Shown here: piece by piece, positions 11,305-15,685 of the stretch | How positions within the stretch are numbered: the first letter of the stretch is position 1 | Layout of the letters: the number at the start of each line of letters is the position of its first letter | DNA from: Candidatus Methanoperedens sp. | Lineage (GTDB): Archaea; Halobacteriota; Methanosarcinia; Methanosarcinales; Methanoperedenaceae | Assembly (NCBI GenBank): GCA_027460535.1 | Contig: JAPZAR010000027.1 | Coordinates: forward strand, 60,001 to 92,000 | DNA: 32,000 nucleotides | Direction: 5' to 3' | Notes under the pieces: model-generated | What the model was told of the DNA's origin: nothing | Databases searched by the model: none | Seen by the model: the letters and a program-made list of their open reading frames with translations, nothing else | Program-made: the position numbers and the translations under genes

Positions 11305-11464
11305 TTATTCAACCTTCTCCCTCACCATCTCCACCCCCTTATCAAGCGCCTCCTCAATCCTCGTAACATCCGTTCCCCCGCCCTGCGCAATTCCCGGCTT
11401 CCCGCGCCTCCGCCGCCCACGAGCTTTGACATCTCGTGCACTATCACACCCGAATCGCCCATCC
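11305..11464 (-). pseudogene. Decayed duplicate of the last ~53 codons of alaS
   Basis: Hand alignment shows 11326-11464 is roughly 85% identical to 12949-13100. The relic reads MGDSGVIVHEMSKLVGGGGAG/KPGIAQGGGTDVTRIEEALDKGVEMVREKVE*. The intact gene reads MGVNAGAIVREMSKLVGGGGGGKPGIAQGGGTDAGRIEEALERGVEMVRETLS*. The relic has its own stop (TAA, 11305-11307) and a 1-nt deletion in the Gly-codon run. Confidence 0.8.
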
Positions 11465-11472
11465 TTTCCTTA

Positions 11473-11819
11473 TCATATCAGTTTTTCTCTCAATAATATT
11501 TCGAACACTTCATCGAGGAACTCTTCTGGCGTCGCATCCTTAGCACTATCACCAGTTGTTTCATGTGCCTCTGGATTCTCAAAAGGATGCCGATGCCAAT
11601 TGCCACCTACACAATCCCTGCCGATAACCGGTTGTTCCATCCCACAAGTACATAATTCGATGTGCCTGAAATCTGATGAAAATAGAACTGGATATAAATA
11701 TTATCTGAAATCTCGATTCTGGCTTTGACTGCGTTGTCAGTTTTTACTAGAACTCGCGGTTTTAACAAATATTTTGAAGCAGCTTTTTCAAGGGCATAAA
11801 TAAAATCCGCCAGCTTCAT
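11473..11819 (-). pseudogene. TumE / DUF6516-like toxin gene interrupted by a frameshift near 11630-11650
   Basis: Frame 1 (track ORF 11607..11819) ends ...NYVLVGWNNRLSAGIV*. A second frame continues (M)EQPVIGRDCVGGNWHRHPFENPEAHETTGDSAKDATPEEFLDEVFEILLREKLI* to the stop at 11473-11475. Joined, the two halves give the family pattern (...RxDN/C..G..HxH....L.EFL..V). Confidence 0.55.
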
Positions 11820-12288: not shown

Positions 12289-12921
12289 TCATTTAGAAGA
12301 TGCTTTGAATGAAAACTCTTCTAATCTTATAATCCGTTCTTCTATGGAAGGGTGAGTTGGGCGATTTGCAAAATAAATCACATTAATAAGCTCTTGAAAC
12401 CTTGAAAAAGGCTGGTTTTTAGCGCATTCTTTCACCTTTTTTAGCGCAGAAATCAATGCTTTAGCATTTCCAAGACCTACAGAAATTTTATCTGCTCCAT
12501 ATTCGGATTTTATTTTTAGATTTATCATATGATTCAAAAGGGAAAATCTTAATACTAAAAATGTAAAAAGTAATGGTAACCATATCTCCAAAAATCTAAT
12601 TTTAAAATAAAATAATAAATTTAAAACTATGAATACACCTAGAACTAATAATGTTAAAGGCATTAGAAAATAAATTATTAAAAATAGGTCTTTCCATCTT
12701 TTTATATGACCCAACTCATGATCTAAGAATGCAAATTGTTCATCTTTATTTAACTTCTCCAGAACTATTGAATATATAATGACTCCAAAAAAGAATGCGC
12801 CTGCATTCATTTCATCGGAAGCTATTTTCAAAAGAAGAACAGGATGCCGTATTCCCAGTTTTTTCTTGCTTTTATTAAAATGAGATTTTAAATCTCCTTT
12901 ATTTATAAGGCTTATTGTCAT
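12289..12921 (-). CDS. M48-family (HtpX-like) membrane zinc metalloprotease
   Basis: 210-aa ORF with HEXXH (DHELGHI) followed by hydrophobic helices, and the C-terminal M48-type motif RPTHPSIEERIIRL. The DNA is extremely AT-rich: one 60-nt line counted by hand is 23% GC. Confidence 0.75.
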   Translation of the reverse strand: MTISLINKGDLKSHFNKSKKKLGIRHPVLLLKIASDEMNAGAFFFGVIIYSIVLEKLNKDEQFAFLDHELGHIKRWKDLFLIIYFLMPLTLLVLGVFIVLNLLFYFKIRFLEIWLPLLFTFLVLRFSLLNHMINLKIKSEYGADKISVGLGNAKALISALKKVKECAKNQPFSRFQELINVIYFANRPTHPSIEERIIRLEEFSFKASSK

Positions 12922-12937
12922 TTTAATTATAAAAATC

Positions 12938-15685
12938 TCAACTTAAAGTCTCCCTCACCATCTCTACACCCCTCTCAAGCGCCTCCTCAATCCTCCCAGC
13001 ATCCGTCCCCCCGCCCTGCGCAATCCCCGGCTTCCCTCCTCCTCCGCCGCCCACAAGCTTTGACATCTCGCGCACGATAGCGCCCGCATTCACCCCCATC
13101 TTTTGCGCCCGCTCACCCGCCGCCACCACGAACTTAACGCCGCCGAGGTCGCTTGCCAGGAGCACCACAAAATCGTCATCCTTGCTGAACTCCGTGGCTG
13201 CTTTTATGAGTTCTTCCACGTCTGCGTGTGTCAGCTTCTTGCAGAGAACTTTCAGGCCGCTTATACTCACGGCTTCGCTCATCATCGCTTTAACCCTCAC
13301 CTCAGCCAATTCAGCCTTCAGCCGCTCGTTATCCTTCTTAAAATCCTTCCATTCGTCGAAAAAACGATTGACCGTATCAGGCAACTGTTCAGGCGAAACC
13401 CTCAGGCCTTCCGAGGATCTATTCAGCAATTCGTCCCTTTCCTGCCACCGTTTGATGGCAGCCTCACCTGCCGAGAACTCAATGCGCTCCACGCCATCCT
13501 GTATCCTTTCTGTCTTGATGAGTTTGATGGGCCCGATAAGCCCCGTGTTCGAGACATGCGTTCCCCCGCAGGCTTCCACGTCGTTCCCCACTCGCAGGAT
13601 GCGTATCTCCTTTCCCGGAGGCACGCCGCCCTGATAGAGTACGAAACCATAGCGCTTTTCCGCCTCCACCCTGTCCATCCAGTCTATGTGCACGGGCTGG
13701 TTTTTCATCACCGCTTTGTTAGCGAGCAATTCGATTTCCCTGAACTCCGAATCCGTTATACGCTTGTAATGTGTGAGGTCAAGCCTTGCCCTGTCCGTGG
13801 ATTTCTGCGCCCCGGTCTGCCAGATATGATTTCCGAGGACAATTTTTGCTGACTCGTTAACGATATGCGTGGCTGTGTGATGGCGGGCATGGGCCATTCT
13901 GCGCTCCACATCTATCTTTCCCTTCACCCTGTCTCCCTTCTTAAATCCAAAATCCGAGTCTGTCTCATGGACAATGACCCCGTTAATGCTCTGGGCATCC
14001 ACTACATTCACAAGAAAATCATCCACTGATAAAGTCCCTTGGTCTGCAGGCTGGCCTCCTCCCTCAGGATAGAACAGGGTCTGGTCAAGGATTATTTTGT
14101 TCTCAATGACCGATAGTACGTGTGCAAAAAATTCCGTCTTTTCCGGATGTTCATAATACAGCTTTCGTGTTGGCTGTATCTCAAGCGGCAGGACTTCTTT
14201 TTCTTCCTCTTCTGCTTTGCTGTGTTTTTTTGCCACAAGCGAATAGAAGGTATCAGGCAGCTCCACTTCCACGTCTGTTTCTTTTGCCACCTCCCGCGCG
14301 ATCTCGGGCGGGATGCCGTGCGTGTCATATAACTGGATCAATTCCCCAAGCGGTATTTTTTGCTTTTTTTCCTTGAAATGCCCTGCCATTTTTCTGACCA
14401 GTTTTGATCCGCGTTCAATTGTGTCGGCGTATTTTTCCTCCTCAAGCGTAACGATCTCTCTGATGGTATCAAGACGCTCCCTGAACTCAGGATATTCCGG
14501 GAAGTTCCTGATCTGCATCTCGATGAGTTCTACGAGTGGCTCTCTTATACCAAGGGATTTCATCATGCGTAGAGTCCTTCGAAGCACAAGCCTCTCAAGA
14601 TAGCCTGCCTTCACATTGGAAGGAATAATGCCGTCACCCAGCATGAAGGCAAGGCACCGGGTATGATCCGTGATTGAGTATACGGTTTCTACGGGTTCCA
14701 TCAGATTCTGGAGTTTTTCTACAGTAGTGCCGATGCTTTCCGCCACCTTCTTTCTTAACTGGAGAAGATTCGCCTGCCCGCTGATATCCATTACCCCTGC
14801 GAATCTCGCGTTCTGAGAGAATATTTTCGCATATTCTGGATTCTCTATGCTGTGTTCGATACCCGCAAGGTCCATTAGTTCAGAAACGATCTTGGGGAAA
14901 ACAGCATCATATATCGTTGGCGAGCCTTTGGACGCCCAGACAAACCGCTCCAGGCCATAGCCTGTGTCGACGATATAATTATCCATTTTCTCATAACGTT
15001 CCCCCTTGATGTCTATCGGCCCATCTTTTGCCTGCTTCAGGTCCATGAAGACAAGTGTGGCAAGTTCAAGCCCGCCCACAAGCACTTCCACGCTGGGGCC
15101 GGCATTGCCCCCTCCTGCCCATGGGGATTCCTTATATGTTACTGAATTCAGGTCAAGACCAAGATCTGATAGCAGGGTATCGCATAATTCCACTGTCCTG
15201 TCCTTCCAGTAAATCTCGTTCTCACGCGAGTTGAAAGCATGATGGGCCATCATCTCAAAAGTGGTGAGGTGGCGGCCGCTTCGCCCCACAGCGTCCAGGT
15301 CATCAAGCCTGATGCAGGGCTGTGAAATGGTGAGAGGGTTCGCTGGCGGCGGAACAAGCCCGGATGTCACAAAGGGTTGGAAATCTGCTATTGAAGCGAT
15401 CGTCAGGTAAATATCATCTCGCCAGCGTGCGATTACAGGATACCGTTTTACACGCGTGTGGCCATGTCTTTCGAAAAATGATAAATATGCTTCGCGCATG
15501 GAGGAAATATCGTATTCTTTTTTGAACACAGGGTTGCCGATAAAAGTGTATGATACGCATGGAGGATCCCCACAAAATTCAGTTTCTTCATCCCGCGTCC
15601 AGAAATTCGTGCCGCATTTTGGGCATTGTTTTCGCACAAAGCCGTTCTCTTTGAAATAATCCAGTTGATACTCGTCATCAGGCAT
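12938..15685 (-). CDS. alaS: Alanine--tRNA ligase (archaeal type)
   Basis: 915-aa ORF. It has an N-terminal Zn-ribbon-like CPKCGTNFW...C..PPC, the class II core (FEMMAHHAF, GGGNAGPSVEV), the editing-domain HxxxH/CxxxH motifs (HHTATH, ACGGTH) and a C-terminal DHHA1-like domain ending in a Gly run. Confidence 0.97.
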   Translation of the reverse strand: MPDDEYQLDYFKENGFVRKQCPKCGTNFWTRDEETEFCGDPPCVSYTFIGNPVFKKEYDISSMREAYLSFFERHGHTRVKRYPVIARWRDDIYLTIASIADFQPFVTSGLVPPPANPLTISQPCIRLDDLDAVGRSGRHLTTFEMMAHHAFNSRENEIYWKDRTVELCDTLLSDLGLDLNSVTYKESPWAGGGNAGPSVEVLVGGLELATLVFMDLKQAKDGPIDIKGERYEKMDNYIVDTGYGLERFVWASKGSPTIYDAVFPKIVSELMDLAGIEHSIENPEYAKIFSQNARFAGVMDISGQANLLQLRKKVAESIGTTVEKLQNLMEPVETVYSITDHTRCLAFMLGDGIIPSNVKAGYLERLVLRRTLRMMKSLGIREPLVELIEMQIRNFPEYPEFRERLDTIREIVTLEEEKYADTIERGSKLVRKMAGHFKEKKQKIPLGELIQLYDTHGIPPEIAREVAKETDVEVELPDTFYSLVAKKHSKAEEEEKEVLPLEIQPTRKLYYEHPEKTEFFAHVLSVIENKIILDQTLFYPEGGGQPADQGTLSVDDFLVNVVDAQSINGVIVHETDSDFGFKKGDRVKGKIDVERRMAHARHHTATHIVNESAKIVLGNHIWQTGAQKSTDRARLDLTHYKRITDSEFREIELLANKAVMKNQPVHIDWMDRVEAEKRYGFVLYQGGVPPGKEIRILRVGNDVEACGGTHVSNTGLIGPIKLIKTERIQDGVERIEFSAGEAAIKRWQERDELLNRSSEGLRVSPEQLPDTVNRFFDEWKDFKKDNERLKAELAEVRVKAMMSEAVSISGLKVLCKKLTHADVEELIKAATEFSKDDDFVVLLASDLGGVKFVVAAGERAQKMGVNAGAIVREMSKLVGGGGGGKPGIAQGGGTDAGRIEEALERGVEMVRETLS

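Follow-up and report, generated by a model that had tools for sequence, protein, structure and literature searches.

How does a block of AT-rich genes come to lie directly after an essential gene, with a second copy of that gene's end on its far side? The question is raised by alaS, the gene for the archaeal alanine--tRNA ligase, in a 32,000-nucleotide (nt) stretch of Candidatus Methanoperedens sp. (assembly GCA_027460535.1, contig JAPZAR010000027.1, positions 60,001 to 92,000 of the forward strand), hereafter the window. Coordinates given without a locus name are positions within the window, and L-numbers denote the loci with which it was compared. We propose that the block probably represents two integrase-less cassettes that entered alaS in succession at its 3' end, about 55 codons ahead of its stop codon. 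Such a cassette would consist of an alaS-like tail, optional cargo and a conserved pair of small genes, here named A and T. This reading draws on a direct repeat with the geometry of a displaced tail, on empty and occupied versions of the same site, on repeated use of that site, and on the horizontal movement and mosaicism of its parts.

A second alaS terminus downstream of alaS

A repeat search of the window returned two adjoining direct repeats that pair the end of alaS with DNA downstream of it: D2 (11316-11403 and 12949-13036, 90% identity, spacing 1633 nt) and D3 (11407-11455 and 13041-13089, 86%, spacing 1634 nt). In a global alignment of the functional tail (12938-13104) with the distal copy, or relic (11305-11467), 138 of 161 ungapped columns match (85.7%), and the eight gap columns come from deletions of 3 nt and 1 nt and from the terminal codons. 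MAFFT and local alignments agree on the pairing. The local alignment score is 190, compared with 21 +/- 3 (maximum 40) in 500 shuffles, about 50 standard deviations above them, and the 28-nt core of the repeat occurs only twice in the window, with 0 occurrences expected by chance. Translated across two frames, the relic reads MGDSGVIVHEMSKLVGGGG and then GKPGIAQGGGTDVTRIEEALDKGVEMVREKVE up to a stop codon, and the functional gene ends in MGVNAGAIVREMSKLVGGGGGGKPGIAQGGGTDAGRIEEALERGVEMVRETLS before its own stop; about 40 of 53 residues (75%) are identical. An earlier reading of the window from its letters alone (the sequence-only reading) had described a copy of the alaS terminus at 11305-11464 with its own stop codon and a 1-nt deletion, and the alignments bear this out.

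The relic starts 5 nt past the stop codon of T and ends in REKVE, a terminus typical of the genus. The functional gene ends in RETLS, which is atypical; among the loci compared, the alaS ending GAGACTTTAAGTTGA is common only to the window and L159, and in both an M48 protease gene comes next. Three independent assemblies of other samples (L081, L082, L084) carry the relic with 100% identity, indicating that the arrangement is not an assembly artefact. A fourth contig (L083) stops a few bases short of the expected relic start.

Two stacked units between alaS and udg

The interval from alaS to udg, a uracil-DNA glycosylase gene, spans 2.95 kilobases (kb) and holds two stacked units, tail-M48-A-T (pseudogene) and then relic-MNT-HEPN-A'-T' stub. 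On the alaS strand the order is alaS, M48, A, T, relic, MNT, HEPN, A', T' stub and the 3' end of udg (protein lengths in amino acids, aa):

12938 to 15685, minus strand: alaS, archaeal alanine--tRNA ligase, 915 aa, intact (NCBIfam TIGR03683, 1335 bits); the target gene
12938 to 13104, minus strand: functional alaS tail (last ~55 codons and stop), the gene-proximal repeat copy
12289 to 12921, minus strand: M48-family metalloprotease-like gene, 210 aa, motif HELGH (Pfam PF01435, E 3.8e-12); cargo of unit 1
11816 to 12127, minus strand: gene A of unit 1, 103 aa, intact; partner of T, presumed antitoxin
11473 to 11819, minus strand: gene T of unit 1, a pseudogene in two open reading frame (ORF) fragments; presumed toxin
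11305 to 11467, minus strand: alaS tail relic, the distal repeat copy, frameshifted, own stop at 11305-11307
10717 to 11199, minus strand: MNT-type nucleotidyltransferase, 160 aa (Pfam NTP_transf_2, E 2e-11; PADLOC PDC-S09, E 4e-19); cargo of unit 2
10322 to 10720, minus strand: HEPN-domain protein, 132 aa (Pfam HEPN, E 7e-20); cargo of unit 2
10023 to 10316, minus strand: gene A' of unit 2, a divergent paralogue of A (62% aa identity in a codon alignment), within repeat D1
9984 to 10026, minus strand: T' stub of unit 2, the first ~14 codons of a T gene (MKLTDFIESLESAA), the rest deleted
9342 to 10010, plus strand: udg, family-4 uracil-DNA glycosylase (NCBIfam Arch_udg, 264 bits), convergent with the island, with a chimeric 3' end; outer edge of the island

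The alaS product shares 86-90% aa identity with AlaS of Methanoperedens genomes. The DNA between the two tails is far poorer in GC than alaS, as had been noted by eye: in 300-nt windows GC content is 23% at 12500-12799 versus 61% at 12950-13249, and it is 28.6% in the M48 gene, 50.8% in alaS and 44.5% in the window as a whole. The M48 assignment made from the letters alone is likewise upheld by the Pfam match listed above. The cargo of unit 2, in which the HEPN and MNT genes are adjacent with a 4-nt overlap, is by arrangement a HEPN-MNT (type VII) toxin-antitoxin pair. A 158-aa ORF on the plus strand (11252-11728) runs antisense to the relic and the T pseudogene and is present among the public gene calls of the same contig (L081 13958-14434); it is almost certainly a spurious gene call, which the structure of the locus explains.

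The left segment had been suggested to repeat the layout of the right one, as the product of two successive related cassettes. A third repeat, D1, agrees with this: it pairs 9984-10267 with 11777-12060 (74%), so that the left segment ends in the same A-T module, reduced to A' and the T' stub. The last eight codons and the stop of udg (9984-10010) are encoded antisense to this stub. The udg product ends in KMELSKQHSQGIQ in the window and in KTELGL in L005, and its chimeric C-terminus is a deletion scar that fuses T' to the end of udg. The gene order alaS, A-T, udg is also found in L005, and alaS, A, udg in L157. Past T, L005 carries a relic, a lipoprotein gene and then udg, and this content is what the deletion in the window would have removed.

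Islands after alaS across Methanoperedens

We compared 14 Methanoperedens loci with alaS and up to 10 kb of downstream DNA, together with 52 metagenome loci. An upstream DHH gene is conserved wherever that side is available, and the genes downstream of alaS vary from species to species. Islands with differing cargo stand directly after alaS in at least 10 lineages, and one site is empty:

Window: M48 and MNT-HEPN cargo, A-T, relic
L004: empty site; 33 nt, a lipoprotein gene on the other strand, then Hel308 and UppS
L005: 345-aa and 336-aa proteins, A, intact T, strongly decayed tail remnant
L013: the same 345-aa and 336-aa cargo genes as L005, then the contig end
L091: DUF4365, an 82-aa protein, A, T, decayed relic
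L092, L093 and L094: a 230-aa protein, A, T, relic 90.7% identical to the locus's own tail
L147 and L150: A-T without cargo, then an orthologous decayed relic
L154: A, HTH, DUF6036, then an in-frame 63-aa relic
L157: A, MazE-PIN, udg
L139: T, then relic (short contig)
L159: M48 (frameshifted), then RHH-PIN; no A-T and no relic

The suggestion that alaS is an integration hotspot, and that genomes compared across its 3' flank would show empty sites and variable cassettes, is therefore supported by these loci. Their relics are of very different decay: identity to a functional tail is ~90% in L154 (in frame), 88-91% in L092, 86% in the window, ~82% in L139 and 80% in L150, and the relics of L005 and L091 are barely recognisable scraps. 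This wide spread indicates events of different ages.

Relics linked to T begin at one position of alaS (AAGATGG, codons K-M-G), ~55 codons before the stop, a boundary common to six of them (window, L092, L139, L091, L147 and L150). The spacer between the T stop and the relic measures 0-45 nt, and T-linked relics carry frameshifts or heavier decay. The relic of L154, which has no T before it, starts ~14 nt further upstream.

Which of the two tails is the newcomer can be read from L092. Its relic ends exactly as the native terminus of L007 does (GAGAAGGTGGGGTAG), and the DNA beyond the relic is collinear with the DNA after the alaS stop of the empty site L004. The DNA after the functional stop of L092 is not collinear with L004. 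The relic is thus the displaced original tail, and the proximal tail, the cargo and A-T are the insert. The native flank with its lipoprotein gene also lies beyond the relics of L005 and L154. For the window the same polarity is indicated indirectly, by a relic with the genus-typical terminus REKVE and a functional terminus, RETLS, that is linked to M48.

A blastn search (E<1e-3) found no second alaS tail within 10 kb in the 14 species loci; the decayed copy in L005 escaped blastn and was found by direct alignment. L008 was considered as an empty-site counterpart of L091 and dropped, its downstream DNA being not collinear (51% identity). Directly after alaS, on the opposite strand and with no A-T, L003 (12759-13377) and L008 (9566-9811) carry a DUF86/HepT-type HEPN and MNT pair, which suggests that the alaS 3' flank collects several kinds of toxin-antitoxin-type modules. 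In L013 (Kmv03, Methanoperedenaceae; ~12030-12520) alaS has no stop at the usual place, and its ORF appears to continue for ~135 AT-rich codons into the island, before the 345-aa cargo gene; the synthetase seems to have gained a C-terminal extension from an end that the island supplied.

Horizontal movement and mosaicism of the parts

Identity at third codon positions separates the parts of the island from the gene into which they are inserted:

alaS, window and L005, L092, L159: 51-54%, saturated
alaS body, window and L159: 51%
DHH, window and L159: 53%
A, window and L092: 87% (93% aa)
T in two parts, window and L005: 85% and 76%
T in two parts, window and L092: 58% and 57%
last 55 alaS codons, window and L159: 76%
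M48, window and L159: 81%

The values for A, T and the tail-M48 block (76-87%) exceed those for alaS (51-54%), which indicates horizontal movement of these pieces. The A-T module of the window is itself a mosaic of an A of L092 type and a T of L005 type. The tail does not co-vary with the type of A (window and L092 share 63% of third positions in the tail versus 87% in A), because the pieces are mosaic.

L159 is the closest relative of the window by alaS protein among the compared loci (90% aa). In a sliding comparison of the two, the alaS body stands at ~78-80% identity. The figure climbs to 93-97% from the last alaS codons through the initial two-thirds of M48 and falls to 65-70% over the final third of that gene; the two loci share the terminal ~30 nt of alaS without a difference. 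The shared block of tail and M48 indicates that the gene end and the cargo travelled together. The M48 gene of L159 (7823-8465) is frameshifted, called as 67 aa and 154 aa, and mosaic, with ~94% identity to the window over its first ~450 nt. Such breakpoints indicate that homologous recombination keeps reshuffling the island.

Over the last 55 codons of alaS (window 12941-13105), third-codon identity is also raised in its own right, at ~59-74% versus 46-58% in the preceding 245 codons. This holds for nearly all distant species pairs, island or not, the main exception being L013, the most distant genome. Repeated horizontal tail replacement, codon bias of the glycine-rich motif and constraint at the nucleotide level are possible causes.

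The A and T gene families

Homologues of T form a narrow family of 51 clusters (P0001-P0051), nearly all of 115 aa and with all named members from Methanoperedens; those of A fall into 91. Among the 52 metagenome loci, every one with sequence upstream of T has A there, and the two genes are small and co-oriented, with overlapping stop and start. In the window, a 1-nt deletion near 11623 splits the 115-aa ORF of T, which is otherwise ~93% identical at the nucleotide level to the intact T of L005, with one gap. T is frameshifted or truncated internally in ~10 of the 52 metagenome loci and twice in the window; L154 and L157 have kept A and lack T.

Invariant residues of T (R64, R68, D69, H76, H78 and H86) form an Arg/Asp/His cluster. 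The AlphaFold model of T (predicted local distance difference test 96) shows a helix, a six-stranded sheet and further helices, and has no significant fold match, the best hits being unnamed or unrelated proteins in PDB (E 0.13) and BFVD (E 0.009). Neither A nor T has a significant match in Pfam, NCBIfam, PADLOC or a PDB sequence search. T had been labelled a TumE-like toxin; we dropped this label, which gained no support from the family libraries, the PDB sequence and fold comparisons or a literature search. ORFs within 6 kb of A-T include AbiEii, PIN and HEPN/MNT. The gene arrangement, these neighbours, the frequent inactivation of T with A kept and the invariant cluster in T are circumstantial signs that make a stabilising role of toxin-antitoxin type the most likely one for A-T.

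A-T cassettes at other loci

The A-T pair is not confined to alaS. At other loci it is flanked on both sides by imperfect direct repeats (59-223 nt) of other local sequences, with cargo or with none. One of these brackets, class X, is a ~150-nt repeat flanking A-T at eight metagenome loci (L097, L099, L100, L104, L106, L107, L108 and L130), situated in L097 at 3506-3659 and 4537-4688. Its two copies are 80-86% identical; between loci, upstream copies are 97-100% and downstream copies 87-99% identical. It encloses cargo in L130 (a 720-aa gene) and none in L097, and is a second A-T hotspot. Class X starts with a TATA-like box, and its upstream copy may overlap the start of a 109-aa ORF on the minus strand. 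The idea that it is an RNA gene gained no support: in the Ga0255* metagenomes it has no Rfam match, and folding z-scores were -0.1, -0.9 and +1.4.

Repeats of local sequence also flank A-T in L129, L143 and L085. If circular or incoming DNA were joined by one homologous crossover, a copy of the local target would be expected at each locus; this would also explain how the target changes from locus to locus. Flanking repeats of differing local sequence fit homology-guided insertion at least as well as site-specific recombination.

Two A-T loci deserve separate description. In Ca. M. nitroreducens ANME2D (L085/L086, 6831-10348), 2 kb separate A-T from a tRNA-Gly gene that was called at 93 nt and may contain an intron. 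Past this gene come a tyrosine-integrase fragment with a zinc ribbon and an IS630-type transposase; the sequences flanking A-T are a 59-64-nt repeat and 23 nt copied from the end of a DUF1579 gene. The 1.5-kb contig L096 (1-1508) reads A (3' part), T, an rfbA-like gene and A (5' part), and ~31 nt at its two ends overlap, differing at one position; the contig is ambiguous between a tandem A-T array around a cargo gene and a small circle.

Searches for an integrase

No integrase, as the sequence-only reading had stated, and no transposase is encoded in the window, and the cargo of the alaS-linked islands holds no recombinase domain. A Pfam scan of 108 ORFs within 6 kb of A-T yielded no recurrent recombinase-like family among the 25 families with most members, a result that excludes only a recurrent integrase. 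Mobile elements with an alaS-3'-like attachment site beside a recombinase were not found either: viral contigs gave 0 matches to a codon-degenerate pattern for GKPGIAQGGG in the alaS tail, and T is absent from viral contigs and from phage and plasmid records. An integrase-bearing autonomous element at the alaS site was found in none of the 14 species loci, the 52 metagenome loci or the viral contigs, in a search that was not exhaustive. The sole integrase seen is the fragment beside the tRNA-Gly gene of L085.

How the array may have arisen

On balance we think it probable that two cassettes entered in turn. Recombination within the ~160-nt tail homology would join the tail of the incoming cassette to the alaS body, so that the essential gene stays intact, and would displace the previous tail to the far side of the cassette, just past T, where it would decay. 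Unit 2 (tail, MNT-HEPN, A', T') would have arrived first; a deletion would next have taken T' from past codon 14, together with the DNA as far as the final udg codons; unit 1 (tail, M48, A, T) would have followed and left the former tail of unit 2 as the relic at 11305-11467; and T would have lost its base near 11623 after that arrival. The incoming DNA may have been a circle or a fragment, joined by a single crossover in the tail, and the crossover would be the work either of host homologous recombination (Campbell-type) or of a recombinase supplied in trans. We rate host recombination slightly higher. The common boundary of the relics would then go back to descent from one founder cassette. 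Across the genus, the sequences argue for several insertion events rather than one ancient event, because, with synonymous sites saturated, a relic dating back to the species splits should be past recognition. Gene conversion may have rejuvenated some relics, and their frameshifts argue against it as a general explanation. The cargo is most likely of defence or stress type.

Part of what had been suggested from the letters alone thus stands in altered form. Of site-specific integration by an element with a surrogate 3' end, the surrogate end and the displaced tail are seen in L092 with L004 and in L159, and the site-specific step is not. The description of the array as a fossil suits the dead T and the truncated T', but not a relic so little decayed beside the saturated synonymous sites of its neighbours.

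Several observations weigh against successive homology-guided insertion. All contigs with the exact alaS protein share the same arrangement, and neither polymorphism nor an empty allele was seen within the window's own population. The third tail copy expected beyond T' is missing, which we put down to the deletion, itself an assumption. No circular or excised form was seen, the ambiguous ends of contig L096 being the only hint of one, and T was found in none of the viral, phage and plasmid records that might represent a vehicle between species. With only ~160 nt of homology, at 85-90% identity, host recombination would be inefficient. The common 5' boundary of the relics could fit a fixed crossover site and a site-specific enzyme rather than one founder cassette, and the functional tail of L092 departs from the host type within ~25 nt of that boundary, as a fixed crossover there would have it. 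For the presumed toxin-antitoxin role of A-T, finally, searches turned up neither a family nor a fold match.

Some of these points would suit an enzyme better. Site-specific integration of non-autonomous elements of the cis-mobilizable (CIME) or integrative and mobilizable (IME) type, with the alaS-like tail as attP and attB in alaS, is a possibility that we hold to be real though unlikely. A tyrosine or serine integrase would be encoded elsewhere, on a Methanoperedens plasmid, a Borg, a jumbo extrachromosomal element or a virus; the array in the window would be a tandem accretion, with the same history as under successive homology-guided insertion and a different enzyme alone. The geometry is identical to that of known integrase-made islands, and six T-linked relics share the K-M-G boundary. 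The functional tail of L092 looks wholly non-host and its relic wholly host, as for a crossover at the boundary, and A-T in M. nitroreducens lies near a tRNA-Gly gene and then a tyrosine-integrase fragment. Known integrative extrachromosomal elements of Methanoperedens encode tyrosine integrases and integrate at tRNA-Asp, with 14-base-pair repeats (PMC13444090). However, no integrase was found in the window or the alaS-linked islands and none recurs within 6 kb of A-T; the alaS-tail motif is missing from viral contigs, as T is from viral contigs, phages and plasmids; the relic of L154 begins ~14 nt upstream of the shared boundary and the spacer between T and relic varies (0-45 nt); and the unrelated repeats that flank A-T at other loci would call for several integrase specificities. 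That the A-T cassettes are an undescribed archaeal mobile cassette, carrying a ~150-nt copy of its target and inserting without a canonical integrase, we regard as quite doubtful; host homologous recombination alone would then suffice, or A-T would take part, with T as an initiating nuclease or recombinase.

A single ancient insertion followed by vertical inheritance, by later cargo gain and replacement through homologous recombination anchored in alaS and A-T, by loss through recombination between the two tails, and by gene conversion that keeps some relics fresh, strikes us as improbable. It would account for alaS being the commonest A-T context in Methanoperedens, for the shared relic boundary beside T, for the evidently orthologous relics of L147 and L150 and for the clear mosaicism (an A like that of L092, a T like that of L005, a breakpoint inside M48 relative to L159). 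Yet the relics of the window, L092 and L154 remain 85-91% identical to functional tails when third positions of alaS agree at only 50%; the relic of L092 has a clade-native terminus and flank, and L004 is cleanly empty; two units are stacked in the window; and gene conversion would erase frameshifts. Local tandem duplication of a block of alaS tail, cargo, A and T by unequal crossing-over or replication slippage, with no foreign DNA, would produce two co-oriented units with the same order of parts. It is contradicted by the unequal divergence of those parts (tails 86%, A and A' ~72%, D1 74%) and by unrelated cargo (M48 versus MNT-HEPN); the M48 gene is also at 28.6% GC in a window of 44.5%, and each part has its closer relatives in other species rather than within the window, so that we consider duplication very improbable. 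A chance resemblance, or an assembly chimera formed at a conserved alaS motif, might be entertained since the tail encodes a conserved, compositionally repetitive, glycine-rich C-terminal motif. It is scarcely credible given a score ~50 standard deviations above shuffles, a frameshifted relic outside any alaS body, its 100% identity in three assemblies from different samples, and equivalent relics in six other lineages.

Significance and comparison with known systems

Mobile elements of Methanoperedens (ANME-2d, anaerobic methanotrophic archaea) are of current interest, chiefly as Borgs, plasmids and jumbo extrachromosomal elements, and small chromosomal cassettes and their entry points are essentially undescribed in the genus. 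Here, across the genus, cargo of defence or stress type has repeatedly entered at the 3' end of an essential aminoacyl-tRNA synthetase gene, and the alaS terminus itself has been exchanged horizontally together with cargo. The literature searched gave nothing relevant on alaS as an integration target. An A-T pair followed by a decayed alaS tail offers a portable marker for variable islands in metagenome-assembled genomes, and T represents an uncharacterised family with a confidently predicted fold that lacks a significant match. The locus poses a concrete mechanistic question, the entry of integrase-less cassettes that carry a copy of their target.

The closest parallel in geometry is provided by e14 and phage 21 in icd of Escherichia coli, where insertion duplicates the last ~50-55 codons and leaves the displaced copy behind as the pseudogene icdC. 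As at alaS, insertion is in the 3' part of an essential-type protein gene, a diverged replacement end is supplied, and the original is left as a distal pseudogene in direct repeat. Unlike the alaS inserts, e14 and phage 21 carry their own integrase beside the attachment site and are prophage-like, with tens of kb. The alaS inserts measure 0.9-3 kb, lack a recognisable recombinase, are archaeal and stacked in tandem, and have A-T at their end.

In size and accretion the cassettes resemble CIMEs, such as those beside ICESt1 and ICESt3 in the fda gene of Streptococcus thermophilus, which are non-autonomous and accrete in tandem. With CIMEs and IMEs they share small size, att-like repeats, the absence of an integrase, a tandem position at the 3' end of a housekeeping gene and stabilising or defence cargo. 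They differ in that no partner autonomous element was found for alaS, and in repeats that are ~160 nt long and imperfect rather than a short identical core. Campbell-type single crossover, as used with suicide vectors, likewise leaves direct repeats of the carried arm on both sides, at a target set by the carried sequence. The alaS arm is short for such an event and only 85-90% identical to its target, and to our knowledge Campbell-type integration is not known as a natural, recurrent means of spread of a defined cassette family.

Islands in tRNA and tmRNA genes, and archaeal integrative elements with integrases of pNOB8 and SSV type, also duplicate the 3' end of their target, restore the gene from the element and form tandem hotspots. 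There the resemblance ends, for at alaS the target is a protein-coding aminoacyl-tRNA synthetase gene, with neither an integrase gene nor a split integrase gene. Chromosomal integrons are similar in their small, promoter-poor cassettes of variable cargo, imperfect repeats and interspersed toxin-antitoxin modules, and differ in IntI and attC-type sites: the window encodes no IntI, the repeat search reported no inverted-repeat arms at the inter-unit repeat, the repeat is a piece of a coding gene, and A-T is present in most units. We do not class the cassettes in any integrase-borne family, the defining integrase not having been found, and their outcome is like that of one. The general geometry is already known; what is new is a set of small, integrase-less archaeal cassettes that end in an A-T pair and recurrently occupy and rewrite the end of alaS.

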